Shown piece by piece: positions 3,487-22,027 of a stretch of 23,247 nucleotides of DNA. Origin of the DNA: a virus (Duplodnaviria > Heunggongvirae > Uroviricota > Caudoviricetes); IMG/VR virus record IMGVR_UViG_2713896770_000034; one strand, 5' to 3'. The notes beneath the pieces are model-generated. The model had not been told where the DNA came from and did no database searches. It saw only the letters and a program-made list of their open reading frames with translations. Positions within the stretch are counted from its first letter, which is position 1, and every line of letters begins with the position of its first letter. A program made the position numbers and the translations under genes.

Positions 3487-3531
3487 AGGGAAAGGTTGCC
3501 ATCAGGGGAAGAAAGGCGGCAGTGCTGCAAC

Positions 3532-3551: not shown

Positions 3552-3554
3552 AGA

Positions 3555-5323: not shown

Positions 5324-5324
5324 T

Positions 5325-5837
5325 TCAGTTTGCTCCCTGTAAACACCAGGCCATCTCCCGCGCACGGCGGTTATCCAGCCCCTGATTAAACACACCTTTT
5401 ACATAAACCCAGCGCGGCAACTGTCGGCACGCATCCGCCCAGCGCCGCTGATTGAGTAATTTCACCAGCGTGGAACTGCAGGCATTGCCCGTTCCCACGT
5501 TGAAGGCAAACGACACCACCGAGTCATACACCTTTTGTGGCGGCTGTTGCTTCACACATCTTTCCAGCGCCCGCTCCACACGTAGCACGTTGGAGATCAG
5601 CCCTTCCGCTGCCTGTCGTTCCGTAATGGTTTTGCCTGGAATGACGCCAGATGTATTACCAATGCCGTCGGTCCAGACACCCGCGCTGCACTGATACGGC
5701 TGCAGACGACAGCCTTCGTAATCGGCAATCAGTTTCAGCCCCTCCACGGAGGTGTGAAGCTGCTGAAAACCCGGCAGCGTGGCAGCAATAGCCAGCACGG
5801 CCCCGACAAGGCAGCGTTTAACGATTGATGGATTCAT
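5325..5837 (-). CDS. SAR-type endolysin, T4-lysozyme-like muramidase
   Basis: 170-aa ORF; Gly/Ala-rich weakly hydrophobic N-terminus (RCLVGAVLAIAATLPGF) typical of signal-anchor-release endolysins; E-x8-C-x5-T catalytic spacing in YEGCRLQPYQCSAGVWT. Not a P2 gpK homologue. Confidence 0.8.
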   Translation of the reverse strand: MNPSIVKRCLVGAVLAIAATLPGFQQLHTSVEGLKLIADYEGCRLQPYQCSAGVWTDGIGNTSGVIPGKTITERQAAEGLISNVLRVERALERCVKQQPPQKVYDSVVSFAFNVGTGNACSSTLVKLLNQRRWADACRQLPRWVYVKGVFNQGLDNRRAREMAWCLQGAN

Positions 5838-6033
5838 AGTCCTCCCGCGAGATCTGCCCGTCGCGCAGAAGCTGGTAGGCTTTGTGTTTGTAGTACCAGT
5901 TGATAGCCAGCATCAGCACACCAATCATCAGGCCGCCCAGCGTTGAGGCATCCTTGATGGACAAATCGCCCAGCCAGGCCAGCACAACGGCGATGCAGTA
6001 CGTGATAAAGGCGCTGATTCGCTCAAGCGTCAT
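5818..6033 (-). CDS. Small holin (pinholin-like, two predicted TM segments)
   Basis: 71-aa ORF with two hydrophobic helices and charged C-terminus, immediately upstream of the SAR endolysin. Confidence 0.65.
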   Translation of the reverse strand: MTLERISAFITYCIAVVLAWLGDLSIKDASTLGGLMIGVLMLAINWYYKHKAYQLLRDGQISREDYESINR

Positions 6034-6036
6034 AAT

Positions 6037-6240
6037 TCAGTCCCATAGCTGGACGGTCTGCACGGTGGTGGTGGTCGGAATGTCCGGCAGCTCCACCTGC
6101 AGCCCGTGAGGTAAAAAGGGGCCATATTCGGCAAGCCCCGGATTTGCCTTCAGTACCTGCTCCGTGACACCCTGCGTGCGCCCGTAATGACGCCAGCAAA
6201 GCGCGTCCACCGTGTCATACTGATGCGCACGCACTTTCAT
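6037..6240 (-). CDS. X: Tail protein X (gpX-like)
   Basis: 67-aa ORF, same length and position as P2 gpX, between L and the lysis genes. Confidence 0.8.
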   Translation of the reverse strand: MKVRAHQYDTVDALCWRHYGRTQGVTEQVLKANPGLAEYGPFLPHGLQVELPDIPTTTTVQTVQLWD

Positions 6241-6704
6241 CAGATAAGCTCCACTGTGCAGTGCGGCGCATCCTGTACCCGGCTGATGGCCCAGCGGGCG
6301 TCACGCCACAAATCACCGCTGGCTTCTGCCAGTTCCTCGCCTCGCTTCACACCCGATGCCGTGGCGTCATAGTCCTGGTATCGTTCGTTGAGCATGGCGC
6401 GTGCCCAACAATAAACCGCGTTGAAATAGTGCTGAATGCGCTCACTTTTGTCGTCCAGCTGTTCCGCCGGAACCTCTGCCAGCGAGGCATACCCCAGCAT
6501 CTGCTGGCGTCTGCGAAACTCATACAACTCTGCGTTGACCTCCGAAATTGCCGACAGGGCAACCTGCTTTAAACGCGGCTGCGTCACCGTGCCGTCAGTG
6601 CGCATGACACTGCGAAACTCCGACAGGTCCACATCAGGCCAGAACGGCGTATTTCTGATGATTTCCGCCTGTTCCGGTGCCTGTTCTGGCGCAACAAACT
6701 TCAT
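6240..6704 (-). CDS. L: Head completion/stabilisation protein L (gpL-like)
   Basis: Track ORF 6240..6767 begins at GTG; ATG at 6704 with AGGAGA Shine-Dalgarno gives a 154-aa product resembling P2 gpL. Confidence 0.8.
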   Translation of the reverse strand: MKFVAPEQAPEQAEIIRNTPFWPDVDLSEFRSVMRTDGTVTQPRLKQVALSAISEVNAELYEFRRRQQMLGYASLAEVPAEQLDDKSERIQHYFNAVYCWARAMLNERYQDYDATASGVKRGEELAEASGDLWRDARWAISRVQDAPHCTVELI

Positions 6705-6799
6705 GCTGCTTTCTCCTGAAATAGAGGGCGGTGGACGGGGTTTTGATGTGGCAGTGCCTTTCGCCACCCCGTGCCGCCCGTGCGCGGGGGCACGTTCTG

Positions 6800-7450
6800 T
6801 CAGCGGCTGTCATTGCGCAGTCTGCGCTCCAGCTGCTGTTTGTCTTTTTTCACGCCACAGCGGGGATCGAGCTGTAACGCATGGTTGAGATGATTAAGGG
6901 CGGAAGCCGGATTGCTTTCACTCAGGACAGCGCCAATCGCTTTATGCAGACGCGCCCGTGACTGGTCCGGCATATCCAGACCGTCTGTCAGCTCCAGCGT
7001 CTGCAACAACAGATCGGCATCAAAGCCGGTGGCGGCAAGCATTGCGCTCTGCGCGGCGTCTGCCATTTCCTCTGCCAGCACGGTCTGCACGTTGCGGTTA
7101 CCCAGCGGCATCACCCAGCCATGACGCAGGGCATGACGCCCGATCTCCAGCGCCCCGGCATAATCTCCGGCATCAATGCGCCACAGCATCACGTACATCA
7201 GCACGTCATCCTGTTGAGCGCCTCCGGCAGCCAGGACCCCCTCTGCCCAGGCGGCGTACTTCGGTAGCAGCTCCACCTTGATTTCCGCTTTTTTGACCGT
7301 GGACTGAACGCCCTTGAGACGGCGGCGGTCTTCCGCCAGTTGCAACAGCATCAGGTCATAGCCCGATGCGTGGCGAACACTGCCGCCCTCGCGGGCGGCC
7401 TGTTCAGCCTGAACGCGCAGGCGATGCTGCCGTGCGGGACTCAGGCTCAT
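6800..7450 (-). CDS. M: Terminase small (endonuclease) subunit M
   Basis: 216-aa ORF resembling P2 gpM; synteny O-N-M-L. Confidence 0.85.
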   Translation of the reverse strand: MSLSPARQHRLRVQAEQAAREGGSVRHASGYDLMLLQLAEDRRRLKGVQSTVKKAEIKVELLPKYAAWAEGVLAAGGAQQDDVLMYVMLWRIDAGDYAGALEIGRHALRHGWVMPLGNRNVQTVLAEEMADAAQSAMLAATGFDADLLLQTLELTDGLDMPDQSRARLHKAIGAVLSESNPASALNHLNHALQLDPRCGVKKDKQQLERRLRNDSR

Positions 7451-7453
7451 GGA

Positions 7454-8512
7454 TTACGCTCCGGTTTCGGCTGCGGCGGCGCTGAAATCACCAATCTGGA
7501 TGTTTTCCACCAGTGCGGCGCAGCGGTAGTCCTCAACCACATAGGCTTCATTAACGGATTCAAAGTTTTCAATCCGGTCACGTTTCGGGTTGTCGATAAC
7601 TGAACGGCGGCGGGTGTCTTCCTGCCAGTAGATGGACAAGTTATCCAGACGGGTGATCAGCAGCGCATTCGGCGGGAAGAACGGCGCACGCACGGCCTGC
7701 AGACCGCCCATGCGTTTCTGACTGATAATCATATCGGCTGCCAGTTTTTCACTGTTTTCCTGCTCTTTGTTGACCAGCGGGAAATACTTGTCAGACAGCA
7801 GTTCACGACCGCAAATCACCACCAGATCGTCATCGTCCTGGTAGACCACGTCGATAAGCTCATTGACCGCATCCATCACCACAGCGTCCAGGTTGGCATA
7901 TTCGCCACCTTTCCCGACTTTCACCGCACCCGGTGTGGTTTCACCACCCGTGGTGGTGCTGCCCATGACGTGATCCGGTGCATCCTCACGGATTTTCTGC
8001 AGCCAGCCTTTATTCACATCCTGCAGCAGCGGGTTTTCGCTACGGTTGGAGGTTTTCGCACGCTTCACGCCGTTAAAGCCGATCATGATGCGGTCCAGTG
8101 CCTGACGTTTCACGATGGCGTCACGGATACGCACCTGGAAATCCTGAAACTTCGCCCACAGGTCCAGCTTCGCGTAGGTCAGTACCGTGTCAAAGTTGGT
8201 CTGCTCGCATTTGTATTCCACATCGACCATCAGCGTAGGATCGACAGGTTCACGCTCTTTCGCGGTGGTGTCAGTGGTTCCGGCAATGGTGCTACCAACA
8301 CCCAACCCCAGCAGCTGACCGGACTGCTCAGTCACTGGCGTGACGTTAATCAGCGTCAGGAAAGCGGCGGACTGCTGGATCTGGTCTTCCAGCGTCTGCT
8401 GTACAGACGGCTCCACGGTGAACTTGCTGGACAGTTCTTCAACTGCCACACCGTTCAGACGCGCCAGCTGCTGCAGGTAAGCGTTAAAAGCAAAGCGGGT
8501 ATTCTTCTTCAT
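7454..8512 (-). CDS. N: Major capsid protein N
   Basis: 352-aa ORF closely resembling P2 gpN along its length. Confidence 0.9.
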   Translation of the reverse strand: MKKNTRFAFNAYLQQLARLNGVAVEELSSKFTVEPSVQQTLEDQIQQSAAFLTLINVTPVTEQSGQLLGLGVGSTIAGTTDTTAKEREPVDPTLMVDVEYKCEQTNFDTVLTYAKLDLWAKFQDFQVRIRDAIVKRQALDRIMIGFNGVKRAKTSNRSENPLLQDVNKGWLQKIREDAPDHVMGSTTTGGETTPGAVKVGKGGEYANLDAVVMDAVNELIDVVYQDDDDLVVICGRELLSDKYFPLVNKEQENSEKLAADMIISQKRMGGLQAVRAPFFPPNALLITRLDNLSIYWQEDTRRRSVIDNPKRDRIENFESVNEAYVVEDYRCAALVENIQIGDFSAAAAETGA

Positions 8513-8528
8513 CAGGTTTTGTGCTCCA

Positions 8529-9362
8529 TCAGCAATTGGTCAGAGTGTCAGCGGGGGCGTTACCGCCTGTTGCACGCTGGCGGTAGTCCTGGCGGCTGTC
8601 TTCATGACTCAGCTTATTCACCAGTTCTTTAAAGGCGGTTTGCTGCTCCTGCAGAGCAGTCTCCAGCTCAGACAGGCGTTCTTCCTGTTCAGCCAGGGAT
8701 TTTTCGGTGCGTGTGCTCAGGTTCTGCTGCTCAGTGGCGACCAGCTCCACGGCCTTATGCACATCAGAGAACCGGGCATCGTCTGACTGCTCTTTTTTGG
8801 TGAACAGCGCCGTGACGCGGGCAAACAGGGATGGTTTGTCATCCTGGACTTCTTCCAGTTCGATCACCGTTTCCTCTGCAGCGGTAAAAAGATTGGCGGG
8901 ATTCTGCTTGCGGTTTGCCAACGGGTTATGGGCTGCACTGGCGCTGAATGTCAGCATTTCCGTACCCAGACTGGCTGGATCATCAGTGGCAGCCAGGCCA
9001 ACCAGGTAGGCTTTGCCCGTATCAGCGAACTTCGGGCTGACTTCCATAGAGGTGAATAATTTCTGGCCTTTTTTCACCAGCTCCACCAGGGACTCCGTTG
9101 GCTCAACGTCGGCATACAGCGCCATCTTGCCTGCCAGCGGGCCTTCCGTGATTTCTTCAGCAAACAGCGCCGTCACCTTGCCGTAGCGGTTAAAGGTGCT
9201 GTCCGGCAGATAAGACTTGATGTGCTCAAGGTTAATCAGCGCGGTATACACTGCGGGGTTGTAGCTGGCTGCCATCTGTTCCAGCCATTCACGCTGGATT
9301 TCGCGTCCGTCGGTGGTGGCACCTTCCACCCCGATGCGAAAACGCTTTGCTTTCACTGTCAT
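8529..9362 (-). CDS. O: Capsid scaffolding protein O
   Basis: 277-aa ORF resembling P2 gpO, including the C-terminal ..TGGNAPADTLTNC; first gene of the late operon divergent from P. Confidence 0.9.
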   Translation of the reverse strand: MTVKAKRFRIGVEGATTDGREIQREWLEQMAASYNPAVYTALINLEHIKSYLPDSTFNRYGKVTALFAEEITEGPLAGKMALYADVEPTESLVELVKKGQKLFTSMEVSPKFADTGKAYLVGLAATDDPASLGTEMLTFSASAAHNPLANRKQNPANLFTAAEETVIELEEVQDDKPSLFARVTALFTKKEQSDDARFSDVHKAVELVATEQQNLSTRTEKSLAEQEERLSELETALQEQQTAFKELVNKLSHEDSRQDYRQRATGGNAPADTLTNC

Positions 9363-9440
9363 GAGCCGTGCTCCGTTAGAAAAAACTTACTGGAGCCTTA
9401 TGGTTGCGGTGATGAGGGCAGTGAAACAATGCGCGGTATT

Positions 9441-9458
9441 TGTACCGACAACCACACA
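9441..9458. promoter_or_regulatory. TGT-N12-ACA element in the divergent O/P late promoter region (candidate Ogr/Delta-type activator site)
   Basis: TGTACCGACAACCACACA seen in the 142-bp O-P intergenic region; only partial dyad symmetry. This motif also occurs by chance, so support is positional. Confidence 0.35.
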
Positions 9459-9504
9459 AACCGCAGGCGGGGAAAGCCTTCATTCAAGACTGTAGGTTTG
9501 TGCC

Positions 9505-11271
9505 ATGAACACCACACTGACACCCGCAGATCTCGATCCCCGTCGGCAGGCCATGCTGCTGTACTTTCAGGGATACCGCGTAGCCCGCATTGCTGAAATG
9601 CTGGGCGAGAAAGTTGCAACCGTTCACAGCTGGAAAAAACGCGACAAGTGGGGTGACTATGGGCCGCTGGATCAGATGCAGCTCACCACCGCCGCACGCT
9701 ACTGCCAGCTCATCATGAAGGAGCACAAAGAAGGGAAAGATTTCAAAGAGATTGACCTGCTAGCGCGCCAGTCTGAGCGCCACGCGCGGATCGGCAAGTT
9801 TAACAATGGCGGCAACGAAGCCGACTTAAACCCTAACGTCGCCAACCGCAACAAAGGCCCGCGCCGTCAGCCGGAAAAAAATGTCTTCACCGATGAACAG
9901 ATTGAGAAGCTGGAAGAAATCTTCCATTCCTCCATGTTCAACTACCAGCGCCACTGGTGGGAAGCCGGAAAAACCAACCGCATCCGCAACCTGCTGAAGT
10001 CACGCCAGATCGGCGCGACCTTTTACTTTGCCCGTGAAGCCCTGATTGACGCCCTGCTTACCGGGCGTAACCAGATTTTCCTTTCCGCCAGTAAGGCACA
10101 GGCCCACGTCTTTAAGCAGTACATCATCGACTTCGCCAAAGAAGTGGAGGTGGAGCTGAAAGGCGATCCGATGGTGCTTCCTAACGGGGCCACGCTTTAC
10201 TTCCTCGGCACCAATGCCCGCACGGCCCAGAGTTATCACGGCAACCTGTATCTGGATGAATATTTCTGGATACCGAAATTTCAGGAGCTACGCAAAGTGG
10301 CTTCCGGTATGGCTATTCACAAGAAATGGCGGCAGACCTATTTTTCCACACCATCCAGTCTGACCCACAGTGCTTATCCGTTCTGGTCCGGTGCGCTGTT
10401 CAACCGTGGGCGCAACAAAGCTGACAAGGTGGACATCGACCTGTCCCACAGCAATCTGGCCCCCGGCCTGCTGTGCGCAGACGGGCAATACCGCCAGATA
10501 GTCACCGTGGAAGATGCGGTGCGCGGCGGCTGTAACCTGTTCGACCTCGACCAGTTGCGCATGGAGTACAGCCCGGACGAATACCAGAACCTGCTGATGT
10601 GTGAGTTCGTAGACGATCTCGCGTCCGTGTTCCCGCTCAGCGAGCTGCAGGCGTGCATGGTGGACAGCTGGGAAGTCTGGACCGACTTTCATGCACTGGC
10701 CCTGCGCCCGTTTGGCTGGCGCGAGGTGTGGATCGGTTATGACCCGGCAAAAGGTACGCAGAACGGCGACAGTGCCGGATGCGTGGTGGTGGCACCGCCA
10801 GCCGTGCCGGGCGGCAAGTTCCGCATTCTTGAGCGTCACCAGTGGCGCGGGATGGACTTTCGCGCCCAAGCTGACGCCATCAAAAAACTGACCGAACAGT
10901 ACAACGTGACCTATATCGGCATCGACTCAACCGGCGTTGGTCACGGGGTTTATGAGAACGTGAAAGCGTTCTTTCCTGCCGTCCGGGAGTTTGTCTACAA
11001 CCCCAACGTTAAAAACGCCCTGGTACTCAAGGCCTACGACATTATCAGCCACCGCCGTCTGGAGTTTGACGCCGGGCACACCGACATTGCGCAGTCATTC
11101 ATGGCAATCCGTCGCGCCACCACCGCCAGTGGCAACCGCCCGACCTATGAAGCCAGCCGCAGCGAAGAAGCCAGCCACGCCGATCTGGCCTGGGCAACGA
11201 TGCACGCACTGTTTAACGAACCGCTGCAGGGCGAATCCGCCAATACCAGCAATATTGTGGAGATTTTTTGA
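9505..11271 (+). CDS. P: Terminase large (ATPase) subunit P
   Basis: 588-aa ORF (P2 gpP is about 590 aa), divergent from O; stop overlaps Q start (TGATG). Confidence 0.9.
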   Translation: MNTTLTPADLDPRRQAMLLYFQGYRVARIAEMLGEKVATVHSWKKRDKWGDYGPLDQMQLTTAARYCQLIMKEHKEGKDFKEIDLLARQSERHARIGKFNNGGNEADLNPNVANRNKGPRRQPEKNVFTDEQIEKLEEIFHSSMFNYQRHWWEAGKTNRIRNLLKSRQIGATFYFAREALIDALLTGRNQIFLSASKAQAHVFKQYIIDFAKEVEVELKGDPMVLPNGATLYFLGTNARTAQSYHGNLYLDEYFWIPKFQELRKVASGMAIHKKWRQTYFSTPSSLTHSAYPFWSGALFNRGRNKADKVDIDLSHSNLAPGLLCADGQYRQIVTVEDAVRGGCNLFDLDQLRMEYSPDEYQNLLMCEFVDDLASVFPLSELQACMVDSWEVWTDFHALALRPFGWREVWIGYDPAKGTQNGDSAGCVVVAPPAVPGGKFRILERHQWRGMDFRAQADAIKKLTEQYNVTYIGIDSTGVGHGVYENVKAFFPAVREFVYNPNVKNALVLKAYDIISHRRLEFDAGHTDIAQSFMAIRRATTASGNRPTYEASRSEEASHADLAWATMHALFNEPLQGESANTSNIVEIF

Positions 11272-12320
11272 TGGGAAAGAGTAAGAAGAACCGCGCTGCG
11301 GCGACGAACCAGATTCAGCATAAAAGCCAGACTTCAGCCGAAGCATTCAGCTTTGGCGATCCCATTCCAGTACTGGACCGCCGCGAACTGCTGGACTATG
11401 TGGAATGCGTACAGATGGACCGCTGGTATGAGCCGCCCGTCAGCTTTGACGGACTGGCACGAACCTTCCGCGCCGCCGTGCATCACAGCTCACCAATTGC
11501 GGTGAAATGCAACATTCTGACCAGTACCTACATCCCTCACCCGCTGCTCAGCCAGCAGGCTTTTTCACGTTTTGTGCAGGACTATCTGGTATTTGGTAAC
11601 GCCTACCTGGAGAAACGCACGAACCGCTTCGGTGAAGTTATCGCCCTTGAGCCTGCTCTGGCAAAATACACCCGACGCGGGTTAGACCTGGATACCTACT
11701 GGTTTGTGCAATACGGTATGACAACCCAGCCGTATCAGTTCACGAAAGGCAGCATTTTTCATCTGATGGAACCGGATATTAATCAGGAGATCTACGGCCT
11801 GCCCGGCTATCTTTCTGCCATTCCGTCCACCCTGCTCAATGAGTCCGCCACGCTGTTCCGTCGAAAGTATTACATTAACGGCAGTCATGCTGGCTTCATC
11901 ATGTACATGACCGACGCTGCGCAGAACCAGGAGGATGTGAACAACCTCCGCAACGCGATGAAAAGCGCCAAAGGTCCAGGCAACTTCCGCAACCTGTTTA
12001 TGTACTCGCCTAACGGCAAAAAGGACGGGCTTCAGATCATCCCGTTGTCAGAAGTCGCAGCGAAAGATGAATTTCTGAACATCAAGAACGTGAGTCGTGA
12101 TGACATGATGGCCGCGCATCGTGTTCCGCCACAGATGATGGGGATTATGCCGAATAATGTTGGGGGTTTTGGGGATGTGGAAAAAGCGAGCCGTGTCTTC
12201 GTCCGCAATGAACTGATGCCGCTGCAAAAGCGGCTGCAGGAGCTGAATTACTGGCTAGGTAAAGAGGTGATCCGCTTCGAGCCCTACACGCTGGGAATAG
12301 ACACAAACAACGATAGCTAA
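11271..12320 (+). CDS. Q: Portal vertex protein Q
   Basis: Track ORF starts at TTG 11268; ATG at 11271 gives 349 aa (P2 gpQ about 344 aa); follows P in one operon as in P2. Confidence 0.9.
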   Translation: MGKSKKNRAAATNQIQHKSQTSAEAFSFGDPIPVLDRRELLDYVECVQMDRWYEPPVSFDGLARTFRAAVHHSSPIAVKCNILTSTYIPHPLLSQQAFSRFVQDYLVFGNAYLEKRTNRFGEVIALEPALAKYTRRGLDLDTYWFVQYGMTTQPYQFTKGSIFHLMEPDINQEIYGLPGYLSAIPSTLLNESATLFRRKYYINGSHAGFIMYMTDAAQNQEDVNNLRNAMKSAKGPGNFRNLFMYSPNGKKDGLQIIPLSEVAAKDEFLNIKNVSRDDMMAAHRVPPQMMGIMPNNVGGFGDVEKASRVFVRNELMPLQKRLQELNYWLGKEVIRFEPYTLGIDTNNDS

Positions 12321-12324
12321 ATTT

Positions 12325-12361
12325 AAAAGCAGCGCCTCTGCTTGTTAAAGGCGCTGCTAAG
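12325..12361. terminator. Putative bidirectional stem-loop terminator between convergent Q and the 223-aa gene
   Basis: Perfect 9-bp inverted repeat AGCAGCGCC ... GGCGCTGCT about 12328..12358, flanked by A/T runs on both sides. Confidence 0.35.
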
Positions 12362-12371
12362 CCTCAAGAAA

Positions 12372-13043
12372 TTATCGCTCTTCCCCAAGAATTCCGGTCT
12401 TAATCAGCTGATTCCAGAAGTTTTTCATTTTCTGTCCTGTCTGCTGATTAACAAATAGAGATGATCTGGCACCGTGCGGATATCCCATCAACTGCCCGCG
12501 CATATCTTCCCAATTTTCACAATAAACTGCATGCCGCCAGTTAGGAACCTCGCTTTCAAGCATCAATCCAATTGCTGCTTTTGCTGGAATGGTGCCATCC
12601 TCTTCCATATCTTCCGAAATAAGCCAATGGCATTTTATTAACAACGGGACGGCGTTGTCATTATAAAGCACAACGTCATCAATCTTCTCAATAGAGAAAT
12701 GGGCATCCGTGTGCTTTAGACGTTTTATACCAGCTATAAATTCATCAACCCTATGACCATAAGGACAGGTAAGAATGCCGTTCCTGAAATAGACCGTGTG
12801 GTCCAGGTATTTAAAGCTAGGAGTATTATTGGGAGTCATAGGCGCCCAAATAGCTTTATCTCTTTCCAGCAAAAAAGGATGCCATGCTGGATACCCATCC
12901 ACTACTGGCCCACATTCTTCAACAATTTCTTTGAGCTTCGCCCTAACTTTCGAACGCATCTCCTGATTTGAACCTTGTGGAACTAGATATCTGTAAGCAT
13001 TTTCGAAATTCGATGCTGCTGCTTCTTCCGCTCTGAAAGCCAT
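12372..13043 (-). CDS. Hypothetical 223-aa accessory protein, no recognisable family
   Basis: ATG at 13043 preceded by GGGGTG; plausible sigma70 promoter (TTGATA-18 bp-TATATT) upstream; G+C visibly below the phage backbone; lies between portal Q and cos where P2 has no gene. Confidence 0.65.
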   Translation of the reverse strand: MAFRAEEAAASNFENAYRYLVPQGSNQEMRSKVRAKLKEIVEECGPVVDGYPAWHPFLLERDKAIWAPMTPNNTPSFKYLDHTVYFRNGILTCPYGHRVDEFIAGIKRLKHTDAHFSIEKIDDVVLYNDNAVPLLIKCHWLISEDMEEDGTIPAKAAIGLMLESEVPNWRHAVYCENWEDMRGQLMGYPHGARSSLFVNQQTGQKMKNFWNQLIKTGILGEER

Positions 13044-13263
13044 AAAACACCCCGCAATATAGATACATTACGCACAACGTATCAATTTCATGCACAAGTT
13101 GCAATGTTTGTGTTTTACCGCTTAAGCCAATTCCCTCAATAAACAACCTCAACAACTTCCTGTGGGGCGGTTTTTTTGCTGCTGCACCTCACCATTTCAA
13201 TTTGAAGCCGCTAGCGGGCCGTAGGCTGTGCCGAGTTTTTGCTATTTCACCTCGTTGCGCGCG

Positions 13264-13282
13264 CTCGTATCCCCGCCACGCC
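13264..13282 (-). other. cos site (P2/186-type cohesive end)
   Basis: Minus strand reads GGCGTGGCGGGG followed by ATACGAG; the first 12 nt match the 186 cos cohesive end as I recall it (GGCGTGGCGGGGAAAGCAT; P2 GGCGAGGCGGGGAAAGCAC). Located between Q and the replication side, as in P2. Confidence 0.55.
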
Positions 13283-13561
13283 TGCCCGCTTTATGTAGTG
13301 GTTTTCATGCACCTGCATGTTCTACGTAAAAGCCCGCTAGTTCTGGCGAGCCTTAGCAAAAACGATCCTTAAACGATCATGCGATTTCATGCAGCATAGT
13401 CATGCACTGTCTAAGAGAAGTGAAAGTCCGTATCTGAATGACCACTTGAAAAACGAAACATACAGACTTACAAAGATGAAGCTCTACTGTGAGCGAGGAA
13501 CATACATAGTTGCTCTGTAATAGCCAAATTTTAAGCAGGAAATCTCTTTTTTATGACAAAA

Positions 13562-13600
13562 CTATAAAGAAAAACAGACCGTTTCATCGCTCGATGAAAA
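13562..13600 (-). terminator. Possible intrinsic terminator downstream of the 525-aa gene
   Basis: Inverted repeat TTTCATCG/CGATGAAA right after the stop codon, followed on the minus strand by TGTTTTTCTTT. AT-rich stem, so weak. Confidence 0.3.
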
Positions 13601-13604
13601 TATA

Positions 13605-15182
13605 CTACAATACTTTTCTCTCGATGGTATTTTTAATGGTCAACATATCTTTAGGAATACTTTTTTTCCCCTCTATACGTATGGTAAACACAAAAAGAAT
13701 AACGGCTGATCTCACAATTTTCATGAGTTGTAAGAGCTGTTTCTCAAACTTTTCTTTCTCAATAAATCTCACCTCATCAAAAAATCCATAAGAATTATAT
13801 AAATCAACTAACATGTCTTTCTCGTGAATAACTAACAGTTTATGTTCTAAATCATTCCTCCATTCTTTAAAAAAAGCAAGCTCACCATTTTTATCATTCA
13901 AATCCATAGCAATACTAAACAAACCCAGCAATCCTTTATTATTTATTTTGTTTATTTTAAGCTTTCTTTTTTCATCACTAATCCGCCAGAAGTTATGAAA
14001 GTATATATGTCCTCTATCTGGTTTTAAATCAAATAATTGACACAGAGCAACTGCTATTTTATCCAAGATACCAAAGCAAGCTCTAAATGCAACCCTTAAC
14101 TTCTCAACATTTTCATACAATATTTCTCCATTATACAATTCAGAATAACATACCTCCGAATCCTCATCAAAAAACTCACTATCAACCTTATATTCAAAAA
14201 ACATTTTTCGTGCTAAGGAATACTCAGCTTTAAGTCTATTTAACACCATTTCCATTGGCACTATAAAATCACCAAACACACCTTCCTCGGTGGTAGCAAT
14301 AGTTATATTATCTTTAGATGACGCATAACAATTGCAATATAGCGAATGATCAGACAACATTAGATTATTATCTATACAAAACCTCTGGTAGTTTGATAAA
14401 GTATCATACTCCTCCTGCGTGAGCCTTTCATCTGTACTTATATCCTCTATGCCATATACACATGATTCACTCAATATACTTTCGTTGTACTTTATTTTTC
14501 TTTGAAGAGCAACCTTCCATGAAGGAAAACATTTCCCTGACTTTATTGCACACTCATAACCTCGAATAACTTCTTTAATCATTTTATATGTATATGTTGT
14601 AGATAATTCATTAAGCAATTCTAATGCCTCAGATCTGTTTACCCACGCCTGAGGAATTGAGTTATCAATAGATATTGCTTGTTCATAATAATCCATTGAT
14701 TCAGATATACGATATTGTTTTTTTAATACATTAGCTAGATTAACTATTAAATCAGGGGGCACCCATCCATCTTCTTGTGAAAGTTTAAACGCTTTCCAGT
14801 AATTATTTTTTACATCATTCAGCTTAATGAAACTATCAATATCTGCATTGTCATTAGGATTAAAATCAAGAACTGCGCTCATTCCATTTGCCAAGTTATA
14901 GTAATATAAGGATTCTTTCATTATAGTCAGAAATTCATTTTTATTGTTTATAAAGATATTTAAGCCTTCCTCCGCTATATTTTTTACATTACTAAAACTT
15001 CCGATATCAATAAGATTTCCGGCCAAATTAGATAATATAATTATTCTATTTTCTTTGATTGTATTTATCTCATCGATACCGTTAAGAATATCCTTTACAT
15101 TTTTATAGGCAGAATCAAATGAACCTGCATTAATAAGATCATCTACGAACCCCATTTTTGAAACAACATAGTTGATATCCAT
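13605..15182 (-). CDS. 525-aa AT-rich accessory protein; N-terminal TPR-like helical repeats, C-terminal HEPN-like region with one R-N-x-x-x-H motif; candidate abortive-infection/defence effector
   Basis: ATG at 15182 with AGAGGA Shine-Dalgarno; 1578-nt frame open in very AT-rich DNA; RNDLEH at residues 442-447 (nt about 13842..13859); no Walker A and no reverse-transcriptase YxDD motif seen. Occupies the P2 old/tin position next to cos. Confidence 0.8.
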   Translation of the reverse strand: MDINYVVSKMGFVDDLINAGSFDSAYKNVKDILNGIDEINTIKENRIIILSNLAGNLIDIGSFSNVKNIAEEGLNIFINNKNEFLTIMKESLYYYNLANGMSAVLDFNPNDNADIDSFIKLNDVKNNYWKAFKLSQEDGWVPPDLIVNLANVLKKQYRISESMDYYEQAISIDNSIPQAWVNRSEALELLNELSTTYTYKMIKEVIRGYECAIKSGKCFPSWKVALQRKIKYNESILSESCVYGIEDISTDERLTQEEYDTLSNYQRFCIDNNLMLSDHSLYCNCYASSKDNITIATTEEGVFGDFIVPMEMVLNRLKAEYSLARKMFFEYKVDSEFFDEDSEVCYSELYNGEILYENVEKLRVAFRACFGILDKIAVALCQLFDLKPDRGHIYFHNFWRISDEKRKLKINKINNKGLLGLFSIAMDLNDKNGELAFFKEWRNDLEHKLLVIHEKDMLVDLYNSYGFFDEVRFIEKEKFEKQLLQLMKIVRSAVILFVFTIRIEGKKSIPKDMLTIKNTIERKVL

Positions 15183-15432
15183 TCAATCCTCTTTAAACTA
15201 AGCTAATAATACCAATCATTATATGGATGAGATCAATATAGAACATGCCATCTCCGGCAAAAATCGTACTACATCAGACCAGTGCCCTTCAAATAATATA
15301 AATTGAACTTAGATACTTCTGCTTCAACCAGTGTGTTAAATCCATCGCTTGAACTCAGAACAAAAAGCGGACGATCACTTATCAAAATGGCCGTCCACCT
15401 AACGCCTCGTTTCACTCGTTGCCCAAAATAGT

Positions 15433-15460
15433 CCCCCATCAGAATGAATCCTCTTGGGGG
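15433..15460 (-). terminator. Possible terminator hairpin after the DinI-like gene
   Basis: Inverted repeat CCCCCA ... TGGGGG (16-nt loop) about 10 nt after the stop codon, followed on the minus strand by TATTTT. Weak T-tract. Confidence 0.3.
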
Positions 15461-15469
15461 CAACGTTTC

Positions 15470-15703
15470 TTAATGCAGCCAGCTGTCGTCTTCCCACACC
15501 TTCTGCATAATTTTCATCACTTGCTTCCTTTCTTCGTCCAGTTGCAGTCCGGTCAGTTCCACACCGTTAGAGCTACCTTTGCGAATGCGAATTACCGTTT
15601 TGGGATACAGGGGGCGCAGATTGCGGTAAAGCTCGGATTCAAGGGCGTCCAGGGTAGACTGGCTAATCTTCTGCTCTTTATCGATCATTATTTCAATGCG
15701 CAT
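15470..15703 (-). CDS. DinI-like protein
   Basis: Track ORF 15470..15775; ATG at 15703 with GAGGTG Shine-Dalgarno gives 77 aa MRIEIMIDKEQ...WEDDSWLH, which matches E. coli DinI (81 aa) in length and in conserved positions (MRIE start, DAL..EL, acidic W-containing C-terminus). Confidence 0.85.
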   Translation of the reverse strand: MRIEIMIDKEQKISQSTLDALESELYRNLRPLYPKTVIRIRKGSSNGVELTGLQLDEERKQVMKIMQKVWEDDSWLH

Positions 15704-15713
15704 AAAAGTCACC

Positions 15714-15902
15714 TCAGCTGATGACATCCATTGAGCGGTTGTATTCGTGGGTTCTGATTTTTGCCATGAGTTCATCTGTCAGTTCAGAAACCCACTGCAG
15801 GGCCAGCCCCTTCTCTTCATCACTACACTCACTAGCCGCTACAAGCTTAAGAAAAAAATCAATGCGCTGGAGCTTCAAAGACTCCAAAAAATAGTCCTGC
15901 AT
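15714..15902 (-). CDS. Small SOS-regulated protein, possible Tum-like antirepressor N-terminal part
   Basis: Track ORF 15714..16004; ATG at 15902 preceded by AGGAGG, 62 aa; sits directly downstream of the LexA box and upstream of the DinI-like gene. Function inferred from context only. Confidence 0.5.
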   Translation of the reverse strand: MQDYFLESLKLQRIDFFLKLVAASECSDEEKGLALQWVSELTDELMAKIRTHEYNRSMDVIS

Positions 15903-15945
15903 CTTTCCTCCTATGACACCACAAGCAATACTGTACGCATAACCA

Positions 15946-15961
15946 CTGTTTATATTTACAG
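15946..15961 (-). promoter_or_regulatory. LexA operator (SOS box) overlapping a sigma70-like promoter
   Basis: CTGTTTATATTTACAG is a perfect CTGT-N8-ACAG with an AT-rich spacer (20-mer CACTGTTTATATTTACAGTA); about 44 bp upstream of the small ORF start; candidate -35 TTTACA and -10 TATACT on the minus strand overlap it. Confidence 0.7.
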
Positions 15962-16055
15962 TATATAATAATCTTACTGATGTAAAACGTTTTTTTACGT
16001 TCATCAGCCTGATATACCTGGTATTATTAAGAGCACGAATTGTTAACCCGCGTAA

Positions 16056-18470
16056 TTAATACAGGTTCCGCCACTTATCATCTTCCTGCAAACGCTGGTT
16101 CCGATAGAAAATACGCAGGCCTGCTCCTGACGGAATGCTGCCGCCGCGAAGGAGTAAATCGACCTCTTTCTCGCTGCCATCAAATCCTCTGGACTTCAGT
16201 TCATAGACGAGCTGCTGTCGCTGATGATCTGTAATTCGCTGTTTGTAGTCTCTACGCCGTTTCGGTTTCACCAGGCGTAACCTTGCAGCCAGTTCCCGGC
16301 GCTCTTTTTTGTTCATACTGTGCAGGTAATCGTGCAATTCCTTGTCATCCATGCGGGTGATATCCGTTCTGGTATCCCCATCAGCTGATTTGTCTTTCCC
16401 TTGTTGGTACAAATTTTCAGCAAGGGGACAGTTATTGCCACGAGTCCAAGGGGCGCAAGCGCCCTGGTCGGCTGCCGCCTCCTGAACGTCAACGGCCTTA
16501 CGAACCATTTTCCACTTCACTGCATGAGTGCAAATCTTGCCCTGTACAATGGGTGACCAGATGCCATAAATACGAATACCGTGATCGCCATAAGCAGTCG
16601 GCTCTTCGTTAATTTCATAAGCTGTTCTGATAAGGTGATATTTGCGGGGAACCAGTACGCCGCCCTGCTTCATGATGTAGGTGGCAAAACAACCAGCATC
16701 AGCAGCAGCCAGGATGGCATCAAGGCGCGGGTTATCCAGTACCGGCGCACCTGCTTTTTTGTCCCCCTGTTGCCTTGCCGCCTGACCAGCCAGCAATCGC
16801 AGTTCACGGTAAGCCTGACGCCCCGGAATGCCAAAGAAGCGGAATTGCTGAACACGATGCAGAGACGCCCAGGCATTAACGTATTCAGCATTATCACGCA
16901 GGGATTTACCCGTTTCCTTGCTGATCTCGCCAGCCAGACCACGCCCGTCAATGTTCTTACTGATGTATTTCGCGATGTAGCTTGTCGGTGTTCCTTTGCG
17001 TGGGTTTATCAGCTCAGATTTAAAGCGTGGACCAGTGTTATTACCCAGTTCCTCGCGGTCTTCACGGATGGCAAACTTACGCAACAATGCAGTAATGGCG
17101 CGGCGGTCTTTTTTGCGCATGAAACACATGAGATGCCAGTGCACAGTACCGTCATGGTGCGGCTCAGCCACCCGCACGCCATACCAGCGCAACCCGGCTT
17201 TGTGCATAGCCTTACGAAATGCAGCAAACATGCCGACCAGATAATCGCTGCTTTGTCTTACCGTCGCATTTGTCCAGGTCGGGTTGGGTCTGCCGTTGTT
17301 GAGCGTGGAATGGAAACGTGACGGACAGGTGATAGTGTAGAAAACGGCGCAGTCACCACGCATTTCTGCGATAAGCTCCAGACCTTTAACACAGGCCATC
17401 ATCTCATTGCGGCGATGTGCCGGGTTGCTGCTGCTGGCGTTTACCACATCTTCCATATCCAGCGTGTCGCCGTCTTCGTTCACCAGTTCATGAGAACGGA
17501 AAAACTCCAGCGACTTACGGCGCTGCTCACGTTTATGCGTCACGGCTTCATAGCTGACATAGGGAGATGCTTTTTTGCTGACCAGGCAGACAGCACGCAA
17601 CTGCTCTTCCCGCCATTCGCAACGCATCTTCCACAATTTTCGATACCACCAGTCGGCGCAAAGCATACGTGCCAGCGAACCCGGTATGAGTTCATAGGGC
17701 ACGGGTTTGCGGCGGTTTCTTTTCCGGCGGAGTTGCTCAAACGCAGGCGGGATAACATCCAGTCGCAGGGTTTCCGCTGCCACCTTTTCCCATGTCTTGC
17801 GGATTTCTTCTGGCTTAACGTCATCGGTGGCATATAAATCGCCACAAGCGGCATCAAGGCACATGCTCATATGCGCAGCTACCAGGGTGGACAGGCGTTT
17901 TACCTGATCCTGACTCATTTCAGGCAGGATCAGCAGGCCCTCAAGCCCTTGATGGCTTGCCATAAAACGGAAAGAAGCGGATAGCTGACTGTCGCGTACA
18001 CAATCCAGTCGCTCCAGACATGGCTTAATCGTCTCACGCAAATAGCGGGAATAAGCCTTTGGCCTGCCCAGGCTGCTGAAGTATTCGATACGTTGCATCA
18101 GCGGCTTGCTGATGTGGGTAGGCTGGGCGCTGACATCTGCCAAAATGACCATGTCCGGGTTAAAAAGCTGCTGCTCATGCGCAAGCTTTGCGCGGCTAAT
18201 GAGCTTATCCTGCTCCATTTCGCGCTGGACAGGATCACGGGATTCATTAAAGAAATAACGCTCCCAGACCTGCTCACTCAGTGCCTCGCGGCGCAGTTGT
18301 TCCTGCTCGTTATCGGCAGCATACAGAGTGATCAGGTTTGAAAGTGCAGACTCCGGCGCAAATTCCGCCGGGTCCAGATAAGGGTTAATGGCCTTTTTCG
18401 GGCCGTTCCATGAAAATGATGCAGCGGCCTCGTTAAAGCCGCTAGAGTTGCTCATATCGTCATGACTCAT
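16056..18470 (-). CDS. A: Replication initiation protein A (P2 gpA-type rolling-circle endonuclease)
   Basis: 804-aa ORF containing TVHWHLMCF (HUH-like) and SYIAKYISK (paired tyrosine) motifs; start overlaps the Dam stop. Confidence 0.9.
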
Positions 18471-19324
18471 ACACGCACCTCGTACACAGCAGAACTATCT
18501 ACGCCACGCGAAGGATCAAATCCCACCCAGCAGCGCGCCCCGGAAACAGCAATGATTTCTGTTGCAGATTTACTATCACCAGCTGCCACACCGATGCTGC
18601 GTTTTGCCTTGATGTAGTGGTGAGTAAAATTGCGATACAGCGAACGGATCAGGGATGTGTCACTGTTAGAAACAATGACCGGATGTCCTTCTGATGACCG
18701 ATGTTCAAGAACAGATGCCAGGTGATACTGGTCATCTTCAGTGAAGCCGTCAGTGTGATAGCCGGAAAACGTACCGTCATACGGCGGATCGCAATACACC
18801 ACATCCCCCGCCTTCAACATCGCCAGCGTTTCATCAAAGCTGGCGCAGATAAACGTTGCTCGCTGGGCCTTTTCTGCAAATGCGCGAATTTCTTTTTCAG
18901 GGAAATACGGATTTTTATAATTACCGTAGGGAATGTTGAAATGCCCGCTCTTGTTATAGCGACATAAACCACGGTAACCGTGACGATTGAGATACAGGAA
19001 ATATACCGCTTTCATGAAATCAGTAATTTCAGTTGAGTAATTAAACTCCTGCCTTATGTTGTAATAAGCCACCTCCCTGTTTGCGATCTCAAATAAAACT
19101 CTGGCGCGAGATATAAACGATTCACAATCAGCGGCAACCTTTTTATAGAGGTTGATTAAATCAGGATTAATATCCGCAACCAGATAGCTGGGATAATCCG
19201 TCTCCATCATCACAGCACAGGACCCCGCGAAAGGTTCAACCAGTCGCGGGCCAGCAGGAAGATGTTTTTTCAGTTCGGACATAATGGCGGTTTTATTTCC
19301 CGCCCATTTCAGGATGGTGCTCAT
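18467..19324 (-). CDS. dam: DNA adenine methyltransferase (Dam family)
   Basis: Track ORF 18467..19384; ATG at 19324 ([11 protein letters not shown]...) with GGAGGTG Shine-Dalgarno, 285 aa; motifs FAGSCAV (AdoMet binding) and DPPY (catalytic). Confidence 0.9.
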
Positions 19325-19548
19325 ACAACACCTCCGTTGTAATGTTTGCCTTTCAGCTCTGCGATTTCCTGACAGGTAATGCAAAGCTGCACTCCAGGAA
19401 TGGCACGGCGGCGTGCTGGCGGAATTGGCGCTTCACATTCAATACAAAGCACGCGAGACACGCCCGGTGTTTTGGCACGGGCAGCACGGATATGGCGCTG
19501 GCGTTCTTCTTCAACGCGCTGCTGTACGAGATCCATTGCATCAGCCAT
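19321..19548 (-). CDS. TraR/DksA-family C4 zinc-finger protein
   Basis: 75-aa ORF with CIECEAPIP ... CITCQ (CxxC-N17-CxxC) and a basic N-terminus; stop overlaps the Dam start. Confidence 0.8.
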   Translation of the reverse strand: MADAMDLVQQRVEEERQRHIRAARAKTPGVSRVLCIECEAPIPPARRRAIPGVQLCITCQEIAELKGKHYNGGVV

Positions 19549-21125: not shown

Positions 21126-21250
21126 GATGCAACATTCCTCGTTTAATGATGATTAATCAGGACGAATACGGATCGTTTGTATTTTGTGAACACCATAAAC
21201 ATACGATCGCACAGTGAAATCGTCAAGATAAAAGTTCACTTGGAGTGACC
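21126..21250. promoter_or_regulatory. Immunity switch region between the Apl-like gene and cI (expected lytic/lysogenic promoters and operators)
   Basis: About 120-bp AT-rich intergenic region between divergent regulator genes; individual promoters and operators not resolved by eye. Confidence 0.4.
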
Positions 21251-21820
21251 ATGAATTTGGAGAAAGGCGGACGAGGCGCTATAGAGCGCATGGTAGAAGC
21301 TTATGGATTCAAGACTCGACAGGCGTTGTGCGATCATTTAGGAATCTCTAAAAGTACACTCGCCACACGCTACATGCGTGACTCATTCCCAGCAGAATGG
21401 GTAATCCAGTGCGCCCTTGAAACAGGCACCTCGCTTAATTGGCTCACAACCGGGCATGGTTCAAAGCAAACTTCAGGTAATACAAATACTATGGAAGTTG
21501 CTAAATATGTATTATCTGATGGGGCCTTGTGTGAAGACGGTTTTTATATTTTCGATAGAGAATTTCTACCGTCGGCATTCAAGAATCTTTTTGTAATCAC
21601 AGATAATAATTCTGAATTTATTTGTGATAAGGAATTTGATGATATACGTGATGGTAAATGGGTAATAAGTATTGATGGCGAAATAACGATCCGTGACATT
21701 ACTCGTTTACCCGGTGGAAGAATCTTCGTCGAGGGTGGAAACAGAGCCTTCGAATGCAAGATAGAAGACATTGAAATAATTGGTAAAATTATAAGTTTAA
21801 CAGTCAAGTATGTTAAATAG
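21251..21820 (+). CDS. cI: 186-type CI immunity repressor
   Basis: Track ORF begins at GTG 21245; ATG at 21251 with GGAG Shine-Dalgarno, 189 aa; N-terminal ..VEAYGF..HLGISKSTLATRY..CALETGTSLNWLTTG resembles 186 CI (192 aa). Confidence 0.8.
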   Translation: MNLEKGGRGAIERMVEAYGFKTRQALCDHLGISKSTLATRYMRDSFPAEWVIQCALETGTSLNWLTTGHGSKQTSGNTNTMEVAKYVLSDGALCEDGFYIFDREFLPSAFKNLFVITDNNSEFICDKEFDDIRDGKWVISIDGEITIRDITRLPGGRIFVEGGNRAFECKIEDIEIIGKIISLTVKYVK

Positions 21821-21835
21821 TACCGGGAGGAAATT

Positions 21836-22027
21836 ATGCTTGGTAAGGTATTTTTTGTGGTTTTGTCATGTTCTTTGTTATTAAACCCACTAGCTACCTA
21901 TGCTAGAAATTATCCCTGCTCAGGGAAAAAGGGAGGTGTTTCTCACTGTACCTCTGATGGCAAATTCGTTTGCAATGATGGAACTATTAGTAAATCCAAA
22001 AAAATCTGTACTAAAAACTCACGATAA
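21836..22027 (+). CDS. Small secreted cysteine-rich protein (63 aa), candidate lysogeny-expressed moron
   Basis: Strong GGGAGG Shine-Dalgarno 6 nt before ATG; N-terminal hydrophobic signal-like segment ([19 protein letters not shown]) then a Lys/Cys-rich mature part with 5 Cys; AT-rich; between cI and int. Confidence 0.55.

Follow-up and report, generated by a model that had tools for sequence, protein, structure and literature searches.

We analyzed positions 12321 to 15469 of a 23,247-nucleotide stretch of Caudoviricetes DNA (IMG/VR record IMGVR_UViG_2713896770_000034; here, the window). This interval is very probably the cos-proximal accessory hotspot (gpA-gpQ, or "moron position 1") of a Fels-2/186-like prophage of the P2 family, with an independent single-gene module in each of two slots. 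The window has a P2-family backbone, comprising capsid N, scaffold O, terminase P and M, L, portal Q, gpA, CI, CII, and integrase. A preliminary description of the sequence had placed the interval in a known cargo hotspot of P2-like prophages, and the literature bears this out: the gpA-gpQ interval is described as a cos-proximal hotspot of P2-like phages in the P2 section of the main text of Rousset et al. 2022 (PMC9122126), and the same interval was named "moron position 1" by Wiles et al. 2013 (PMC3573123). The window resembles the published hotspot in its position, including the presence of cos, and in the exchange of cargo between fixed flanks. It differs in that both papers treat A-Q as one hotspot "adjacent to cos," whereas the window has two independently assorting slots around a cos core of ~155 bp.

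Two variable slots around a conserved cos block

The conserved left flank of the interval is the portal gene Q (11268 to 12320, plus strand; PF04860 Phage_portal). The conserved right flank is a DinI-like gene (15470 to 15703, minus strand; PF06183), and gpA (16056 to 18470, minus strand) lies beyond it. Hence, with Phage_portal on one side and Phage_GPA on the other, the interval is positioned between A and Q. DinI is annotated as a 234-bp gene in the relatives, and the 101-aa DinI ORF of the window is therefore over-extended. The preliminary description had reported two non-backbone genes on the same strand between Q and the DinI/gpA genes. We found both on the minus strand, at a location where relatives carry other genes: ORF223 (12372 to 13043) encodes a 223-aa cargo protein from a family without annotation, and ORF525 (13605 to 15182) encodes a 525-aa protein with TPRs and an LA2681-family HEPN domain (PF18733). 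The spacer between them, described earlier as ~560 bp long and containing cos, measures 561 bp (13044 to 13604) and does include the predicted cohesive end. A 64-aa ORF with a TTG start upstream of ORF525 (15269 to 15463, minus strand) had no family match and no PGAP annotation in ECONIH5 or EC100, and it is probably not a gene.

We located cos by comparison with annotated cohesive ends. The exact P2 cos 19-mer was not found in the window with up to 3 mismatches allowed. The 186/Fels-2-type cos core, GGCGTGGCGGGGA, had a single match, at 13270 to 13282 on the minus strand (0.01 expected by chance). The predicted 19-nt cohesive-end sequence around it, GGCGTGGCGGGGATACGAG (13264 to 13282, minus strand), can be aligned position by position with the cohesive ends annotated for P2 (GGCGAGGCGGGGAAAGCAC) and 186 (GGCGTGGCGGGGAAAGCAT). 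It lies in a conserved block of ~155 bp (13254 to 13408; 51.6% G+C) that is 91 to 95% identical to 7 phages across about 150 bp and is the only part of the Q-DinI interval common to all relatives. On the A side, the aligned block has GCATGA-type repeats that can be recognized in P2 too, and these repeats are probably terminase-binding sites. The block is made up of the 19-nt cohesive-end sequence and, on the A side, these repeats over about 125 bp. On the Q side, homology among relatives ends about 7 nt past the cohesive end, so that cargo can enter on the Q side or the A side of the block with packaging unharmed. In virion DNA, ORF223 and ORF525 would lie at opposite ends of the genome.

We compared the interval with 11 related P2-like phages and prophages and mapped homology against 7 related phages. 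Only three stretches are conserved between relatives: the end of Q, where homology extends to about 12230 to 12290; the cos block; and the sequence from DinI onward (from 15460), where the DinI-like flank is 96.5 to 98.3% identical. Hence, there are two variable slots, one on each side of cos. The left slot (12321 to 13253; 933 bp) holds the ORF223 module, and the 7 related phages have no homology to the window from the end of Q to 13254. The right slot (13409 to 15459; about 2.05 kb) holds the ORF525 module and is missing in the 7 phages, whose homology picks up again at 15460 or 15472. The left slot of relatives contains a TIR gene, a retron St85 reverse transcriptase plus effector, an AIPR gene, a Hypoth_Ymh (Ymh-HEPN) gene, STM2723.1 of Fels-2, a three-gene set, a 120-aa ORF, or a 554-aa ORF. 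The right slot is empty (68 bp) or contains either an 843-bp STM2726-type segment or a 630-aa protein with a P-loop NTPase fold, entered as KAP_NTPase in the table of Rousset et al. (PMC9122126). Across the 11 relatives, the cargo is swapped and the flanks and cos block stay fixed, as the preliminary description had anticipated for a comparison of this interval. These alignments demonstrate the anatomy and the variability of the locus directly.

In P2, the same neighborhood holds old and tin, as stated in the preliminary description; both are annotated on the A side of cos. Like the cargo of the window, they are nonessential genes beside cos, in the same gap between modules, with a presumed role in phage exclusion. 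However, old and tin are transcribed away from cos, whereas ORF525 points toward cos, in the same orientation as A. Neither P2 nor 186 has a gene between Q and cos (in P2, 168 bp separate the Q end from cosL; in 186, the distance is 177 bp), in contrast to the window with ORF223. A gene at this position was earlier considered foreign to the P2 layout, which is correct for P2 and 186, but it is not unusual outside them: each of the 11 Fels-2-like relatives sampled has one, among them the reference phages Fels-2 and RE-2010. Fels-2, RE-2010, and 4LV2017 (Felsduovirus and Elveevirus) match the window in backbone (flanks with 82 to 98% DNA identity), in the cos block, and in the two-slot layout. 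Their cargo differs, with STM2723.1, an AIPR protein, or retron St85 on the left and the 843-bp STM2726-type segment on the right.

We also searched for signals that might govern expression of the cargo genes. Q and ORF223 converge, and a G+C-rich hairpin (12328 to 12358) separates their stops. Its stem resembles that of a terminator, with G-C at 7 of the 12 pairs, and by analogy the hairpin is a probable bidirectional terminator and positional counterpart of P2 tQ; tQ and tW are annotated just downstream of the portal gene in P2 and 186. Apart from this strong hairpin, promoter- and terminator-like sites were about as numerous in the scan as expected by chance. Promoter-like hexamers 5′ of ORF223 (13056 to 13085, minus strand; TTGATA, an 18-nt spacer, and TATATT) match 10 of 12 consensus positions, but since such sites were not above chance in the region, we regard them only as a candidate promoter. 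The scan found no convincing promoter for ORF525. The expression pattern of the cargo genes is inferred. An Rfam scan of positions 12000 to 16200 and a tRNA scan of the window gave no matches, indicating that the spacer hides no retron noncoding RNA or tRNA.

The two cargo proteins

Nearly identical copies of both genes are present in E. coli. Copies of ORF525 have 99.6 to 99.9% DNA identity to the window and are annotated as WP_000354145, with the PGAP name "LA2681 family HEPN domain-containing protein." The protein matches PF18733 at an E value of 1.8e-38 and a score of 132.4 bits (gathering cutoff, 27), over profile positions 9 to 204 of 204, so that its domain content is a direct observation. 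The Rx4H motif is RNDLEH (R441-N-D-L-E-H446), and R441, N442, E445, and H446 are invariant across 30 homologues, down to 38% identity. Matches to Pfam TPR profiles were below threshold. In the AF2 model (pLDDT, 86.7), however, the N-terminal half is an all-helical repeat, and Foldseek matched the model with a probability of 1.0 to the TPR domains of OGT, CTPR, and LGN; the matches were mostly to TPRs, and the HEPN half was not resolved separately. We conclude that ORF525, as modeled, is an N-terminal TPR superhelix joined to a C-terminal LA2681-family HEPN domain. This agrees with Anantharaman et al. 2013 (PMC3710099), who described the LA2681 family as "fused to TPR," a trait that ORF525 carries.

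The LA2681-family TPR-HEPN architecture and the invariant Rx4H motif make ORF525 a likely RNase of the abortive-infection type, as predicted from sequence. It shares a C-terminal HEPN domain with an Rx4H motif, and occurrence as a solitary gene in mobile elements and defense islands, with the HEPN RNases AbiD/F/J/U2/V, ApeA, RloC/PrrC, and Ymh (PMC3710099). Its homologues are solitary island genes beside Mrr and Cap4 nuclease genes in Vibrio, AbiEii in Yersinia, and integrase and transposase genes in Pseudomonas. We infer an RNase activity and an anti-phage role from these likenesses. ORF525 would most likely act as a stand-alone effector of abortive infection or superinfection exclusion, in which recognition of a phage-derived protein by the TPR array would release the HEPN RNase, which would then cut host or phage RNA. 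In the literature searched, a single paper names the LA2681 family; that paper is purely computational, and no experimental characterization was found. A "HEPN-TPR" protein of the P4 hotspot, among the additional tested systems of Rousset et al., was considered as a homologue of ORF525 and rejected (BLASTP E value, 2.1).

ORF223 copies in E. coli have 99.9% DNA identity to the window and are annotated as WP_000885505. Profile searches gave no family match for this protein, and there was no fold match, although the predicted model is confident (pLDDT, 90). Proteins of the ORF223 family have about 220 aa and share invariant H54, H81, C92, and C137 and a PHGARSSLFVNQ motif. Homologues are prophage cargo in four backbones (P2-like, HK97-like, lambda-like, and Mu-like). 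In the three cos-type backbones, they adjoin the packaging module or a genome end; in the Mu-like prophage, the homologue is in the head module. In an Acinetobacter island, a homologue occurs with an MmeI-type enzyme and a Ymh HEPN protein, and in Marinobacter one is beside a pyocin locus.

The preliminary description had proposed running defense-annotation tools on the interval, on the grounds that P2-like prophages carry anti-phage cargo there. Against PADLOC-DB v2, which includes Old and Tin, this gave zero matches for ORF223 and only a weak, generic TPR hit for ORF525 (E value, 3.5e-4). Hence, in contrast to P2 Old and Tin, which are catalogued, the genes of the window match no catalogued defense model. 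A tblastn search with both proteins against 50,697 phage records returned no match. In the P2 section of the main text of Rousset et al. (PMC9122126) and the part of its table of tested systems covered here, neither protein is among the cloned and tested systems. The same material reports non-defense cargo, including partition systems and toxins, in the A-Q hotspot, so location alone does not establish a defense function.

In the left slot, ORF223 would most likely be another prophage conversion gene, for defense or counter-defense. One alternative, which we consider possible but doubtful, is that ORF223 does not serve defense at all and is a counter-defense or host-physiology conversion gene used in the phage's own infection or lysogeny. 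A small, soluble, single-domain protein that matches no defense model, is carried by four phage backbones, adjoins the packaging module or genome end in the three cos-type ones and the head module in the Mu-like one, and sits in a hotspot known for non-defense cargo would fit this alternative. However, the homologues outside prophages, in Acinetobacter and Marinobacter, suit defense and conflict islands equally, and the sequence and model fit either reading alike. We tentatively suggest that ORF223 may represent a hitherto undescribed family of single proteins, with no relative discernible by fold and with a role in phage-phage or phage-host conflict, which hops among moron sites in four or more unrelated backbones of temperate phages and is cos-proximal in the three cos-type ones.

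Independent assortment of ORF223 and ORF525

Composition sets the two genes apart from the backbone and from each other. ORF223 has 43.3% G+C (GC3, 39.7%) and ORF525 has 30.7% (GC3, 26.8%), compared with 56% for the structural backbone and 50% for the early-gene side; GC3 is 64 to 71% in the backbone versus ~40% and ~27% in the two genes. The cargo is thus compositionally foreign, contrary to the absence of any G+C deviation that would have counted against an accessory island, and the values of 43% and 31% versus 56% indicate that ORF223 and ORF525 have different origins.

Among 5,426 complete E. coli genomes, 1,277 have a match somewhere in the query interval, in most cases to the cos block. 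ORF223 is present in 24 and ORF525 in 11, with no overlap; that the two never occur together is a statement about these 5,426 complete genomes. These counts do not fit conserved core genes, and the idea that ORF223 is a core gene of the lineage was rejected because only 24 genomes carry it compared with 1,277 matching part of the interval. The left segment (12321 to 13459) moves as a unit, with 97.5 to 97.9% identity, in E. coli prophages with another right slot, and the right segment, from 13257 onward, is found with 99.5% identity in E. coli prophages with another left slot. The window is a mosaic of the two, with positions 11000 to 13459 of the ML35 type (97.7%) and positions 13257 to 17000 of the EC100 type (99.5%). 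The overlap between the types is the cos block, and the crossover maps inside it. Independent assortment and mosaic origin are therefore both directly demonstrated.

It is highly improbable that ORF223 and ORF525 form one two-component system (sensor/effector or toxin/antitoxin) that is split by cos and reunited only on circularization. The genes are adjacent on the same strand and both compositionally atypical, and the pair is present in three near-identical draft contigs with 99.5 to 100% identity to the window. However, no complete E. coli genome has both, each is found with varying partners, their G+C contents differ by 12 points, distant homologues of each are solitary in unrelated contexts, and the crossover in the mosaic separates one from the other. 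We therefore rejected a split two-gene system on co-occurrence, composition, and mosaic structure, and concluded that ORF223 and ORF525 are unrelated, independently assorting single-gene modules. The accessory island split by cos that was originally proposed stands insofar as there is cargo on both sides; it is not a single island.

It is just as unlikely that the interval is decaying DNA of a defective prophage with nonfunctional ORFs, as low G+C, the lack of functional annotation for ORF223, and the absence of clear promoters in the scan might suggest, since neither ORF is disrupted, the copies in E. coli share 99.6 to 99.9% DNA identity with the window, full-length homologues with invariant motifs extend down to about 40% identity in several bacterial orders, both models are confident (pLDDT, 90 for ORF223 and 87 for ORF525), and the neighboring head, packaging, and replication genes are intact.

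Implications for the gpA-gpQ hotspot

The locus itself is ordinary and already known. It is one more case of a hotspot already in the literature, and the proteins annotated for nearly identical gene copies of ORF525 and ORF223 are tabulated there: Table S5A of PMC9122126 includes WP_000354145 and WP_000885505, with varying partners. Two protein families merit attention nonetheless. The LA2681 TPR-HEPN family is flagged as a single-gene defense candidate with its catalytic motif intact, and the ORF223 family, which is small, well conserved, confidently modeled, and recurrent as prophage cargo, is a reasonable candidate for screening.

For Fels-2-like phages, the locus shows that the hotspot is in fact a pair of slots, one on each side of a cos core of ~155 bp, that exchange cargo independently. 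Surveys that treat the A-Q hotspot as one unit will over-count "systems" made up of unrelated neighbors. Cargo in the slots on either side of the cos block would be exchanged independently, and the shared block may act as an anchor for homologous recombination. The cos core may itself be what lets P2-like phages shuffle the cargo of their left and right genome ends independently.

Gene map of the window and the interval between Q and DinI

The window is a segment of a P2-family prophage. On the structural side, the minus strand encodes baseplate J, head completion L, small terminase M, P2-type capsid N, and scaffold O, and the plus strand encodes terminase P (9505-11271) and portal Q (11268-12320). 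To the right of Q, the minus strand carries DinI (15470-15703), a phrog_698 gene, replication protein A (16056-18470), and a Dam-type N6-adenine methyltransferase (18467-19384), which belongs to the early operon and lies directly upstream of gpA. CII, CI, and integrase are found beyond it. By Megablast, the window groups with Fels-2-like Peduoviridae from Klebsiella, Escherichia, and Salmonella, and a draft-genome contig (GCA_001039155.2) has 100% identity to the window across 10.7 kb.

DinI (101 aa, 15470-15775) and the phrog_698 gene (96 aa, 15714-16004), both on the minus strand, are over-extended in a mechanical ORF list. Annotation in relatives starts them at internal ATGs (77 and 62 aa, respectively), which removes their apparent overlap. 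The methyltransferase gene is kept in Fels-2 and E. coli relatives; the best PADLOC match of its product is "orphan methyltransferase" (1.4e-111), and a role in shielding the phage from restriction is possible. G+C drops a second time, to about 36%, at 21500-22250, between the genes for the CI repressor (21245-21820) and integrase (start, 22060). This dip contains a 63-aa ORF (21836-22027) and may be a further small moron site; a 2026 survey describes P2-like phages with minor defence hotspots near the integrase.

Between Q and DinI we mapped two ORFs, both on the minus strand: ORF223 (223 aa, 12372-13043) and ORF525 (525 aa, 13605-15182), separated by 561 bp. The preliminary description, which had proposed two same-strand non-backbone genes with a spacer of ~560 bp holding cos, was thus accurate in all particulars. 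Calculation of G+C for each gene, which it had also proposed, showed that both genes deviate from the structural backbone (56% overall, positions 1-12320; individual structural genes, 53-57%, with GC3 of 64-71%). The values are 43.3% for ORF223 (GC3, 39.7%) and 30.7% for ORF525 (GC3, 26.8%), and the composition of both is clearly foreign. A 64-aa ORF at 15269-15463 had no support from family matches or from annotation in relatives, and no Rfam families or tRNAs were found in the interval.

Q and ORF223 converge, and their stop codons are separated by a strong hairpin (12328-12358; 12 pairs, 7 of them G-C) at the same position as tQ/tW of P2 and 186. The promoter-like site directly upstream of ORF223 (13085-13056) matches at 10 of 12 positions, a level reached at chance frequency in this region. 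A promoter scan of the region found no convincing promoter for ORF525. This gene is co-oriented with the early operon, and read-through from DinI is a possible source of its transcription.

Two cargo slots around cos in a published hotspot

We did not find the exact P2 cohesive-end 19-mer in the window. It has a single copy of the 186/Fels-2-type core GGCGTGGCGGGGA, on the minus strand at 13270-13282 (chance expectation, 0.01). When aligned with the cos ends annotated in P2 and 186, the 19-mer GGCGTGGCGGGGATACGAG (13264-13282) matches them exactly in position. We then compared positions 11800-16100 with seven related phages (500465-1, 4LV2017, RE-2010, 813R9, Fels-2, ST11-OXA245phi3.1, and KP12) using blastn. 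Exactly three blocks were conserved: the end of Q (to about 12230-12290), ~150 bp at 13254-13408, and everything from 15460/15472 on. Hence, a cos core divides the interval into a left slot (12321-13253) and a right slot (13409-15459). In a multiple alignment, homology among the relatives ended, in the direction of Q, about 7 nt past the cohesive end; toward gpA it reached about 125 bp, across repeated GCATGA-type motifs that are recognizable in P2 too and are probably terminase recognition elements. We consider it very likely that the interval is a hotspot with two slots.

The left slot of individual relatives holds a 103-aa ORF with a TIR protein, the retron St85 reverse transcriptase with its effector, an AIPR protein, a Hypoth_Ymh (HEPN) protein, Fels-2 STM2723.1, a 580-aa ORF, or a three-gene set; in E. 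coli prophages it holds a 120-aa or 554-aa ORF. The right slot is empty (68 bp) in two phages and contains an 843- to 844-bp STM2726-type segment in five. In E. coli ML35 and NGF1 it encodes a P-loop NTPase-fold protein of 630 aa (WP_000552033), entered as KAP_NTPase in Table S5A of Rousset et al. (PMC9122126). In this Q-to-A comparison, which the preliminary description had proposed as a check, the flanks are fixed and the cargo is swapped in both slots.

Two observations concern the records themselves (coordinates refer to our sequence extracts). Fels-2 (STM2726, L005 3202-3933) and two Klebsiella phages annotate a gene of 225 to 243 aa in the STM2726-type segment; the gene was probably missed in RE-2010 (L003 4030-4872), where the segment lacks annotation, and in 4LV2017 (L002 4241-5084), where it has only a 62-aa ORF. 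The record of Escherichia phage 500465-1 (L001 969-2007 and 5208-5904) resembles a degraded prophage more than a functional phage: its portal and large-terminase genes are each annotated as two pieces, and IS elements (DDE transposase and IS100kyp IstB) adjoin a truncated gpA.

At least one gene lies between Q and cos in 11 of 11 sampled relatives. In contrast, old and tin of P2 are both on the A side of cos, and the terminator alone occupies the 168 bp from the end of Q to cosL, as it does the 177 bp from the portal gene to cos in 186. The preliminary description thus had the P2 layout right, but among Fels-2-like phages, the reference phages included, a gene between Q and cos is normal.

We searched 5,426 complete E. 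coli genomes for the cargo genes. Of these, 24 contained ORF223 DNA and 11 contained ORF525 DNA, in every case at ≥99.6% identity, with zero overlap between the accession lists; no genome covered at least 80% of the whole interval. Prophages with ORF223 carry the KAP_NTPase gene in the right slot, and those with ORF525 carry genes other than ORF223 in the left slot. The ML35-type prophage matches window positions 11000-13459 at 97.7%, and the EC100-type prophage matches 13257-17000 at 99.5%. The window is therefore a mosaic of an ML35-type left part and an EC100-type right part. Since the cos block is the only part covered by both matches, the crossover lies within 13257-13459, which suggests that cos is a recombination anchor that shuffles end-proximal cargo. 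The combination of ORF223 and ORF525 is real and persistent, being found in three draft assemblies (99.5 to 100% identity to the window). A single system split by cos is nonetheless rejected by the absence of a shared genome among the complete E. coli genomes, the varying partners, the mosaic crossover, and a GC gap of 12 points. We conclude that ORF223 and ORF525 are independent modules.

Rousset et al. (PMC9122126) describe the A-Q interval as a hotspot and count 1,650 arrangements of it in E. coli. The interval is moron position 1 of Wiles et al. 2013 (PMC3573123), and the 2026 survey names GpA-GpQ as the main P2 defence hotspot. The EC100 copy of ORF525 (PGAP protein WP_000354145) and the ML35 and NGF1 copies of ORF223 (WP_000885505) have 99.9% DNA identity to the window, and both accessions appear, each with different neighbors, in Table S5A of Rousset et al. 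(PMC9122126). The locus is thus already known, and the proposal of swappable cargo in a known P2 hotspot is supported. Neither gene was found among the tested systems in the P2 section and part of the table of Rousset et al., and two independently assorting slots around a minimal cos core are not spelled out in the portions of the hotspot papers compared. The feature is real but ordinary, one instance of a published hotspot.

ORF525, an LA2681-family TPR-HEPN protein

Pfam identified HEPN_LA2681 (PF18733) at residues 309-504 (1.8e-38) and below-threshold TPR matches near residues 145-174. The HEPN signature is R441-N-D-L-E-H446, and R441, N442, E445, and H446 are invariant across 30 homologues with identities as low as 38%. 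The AlphaFold model (pLDDT, 86.7) is all-helical, with an N-terminal half of repeats that Foldseek matched to TPR superhelices. Full-length homologues (about 525 aa) are known from Enterobacterales, Vibrio, Pseudomonas, Cellvibrio, and others; they are solitary island genes, adjoining Mrr and Cap4 nuclease in Vibrio, AbiEii and integrase in Yersinia, and integrase and transposase in Pseudomonas.

In their survey of HEPN domains, Anantharaman et al. 2013 (PMC3710099) describe the LA2681 family as "fused to TPR" with a conserved motif; we found no other paper naming the family in the searchable literature, and PADLOC lacks a model of the family. ORF525 is unrelated to the "HEPN-TPR" protein of the P4 hotspot, which Rousset et al. 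list with their additional tested systems. An anti-phage function of ORF525 is plausible. By analogy with other HEPN defence proteins, we slightly favor a mechanism in which recognition of a phage component by the TPR array would lead to RNA cleavage by the predicted HEPN RNase and so abort infection.

ORF223, an unannotated family of mobile cargo

ORF223 had no match in Pfam, PADLOC, PHROGs, or NCBIfam. About 200 homologues were collected, nearly all of 219 to 228 aa. An exhaustive search of 1.84 billion representatives with the family profile returned only 293 members, with no informative fusions among them. Alignment revealed invariant H54, H81, C92 (within a TCPY motif), and C137 and an invariant PHGARSSLFVNQ motif; speculatively, these residues would suit a metal site or a Cys/His active site. 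AlphaFold gave a confident model (pLDDT, 90; pTM, 0.88), and neither Foldseek against BFVD nor the family profile against PDB sequences gave a match.

Homologues are cargo in four unrelated temperate-phage backbones. In Serratia P2-like prophages (L016-L018 5001-5669) the gene is portal-adjacent, at the same position within the A-Q interval. In a Klebsiella (K. quasipneumoniae) HK97-like prophage (L019 5001-5666) it lies between the lysis cassette and HNH/TerS genes, and in a Pectobacterium lambda-like prophage (L033 6001-6666) between the lysis cassette and a Nu1/gpA-type terminase; in both, the terminase neighbor is the small-subunit gene, so that the position is again beside the packaging site. 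The Roseibium Mu-like prophage (L036 6001-6666) has it within the head module. Other homologues adjoin an MmeI-type enzyme and Ymh HEPN in Acinetobacter and a pyocin S locus in Marinobacter. The distribution is that of a mobile conversion gene, whose role, as judged from sequence, may be defensive, counter-defensive, or other. The interest of the locus rests mainly on this uncharacterized family.
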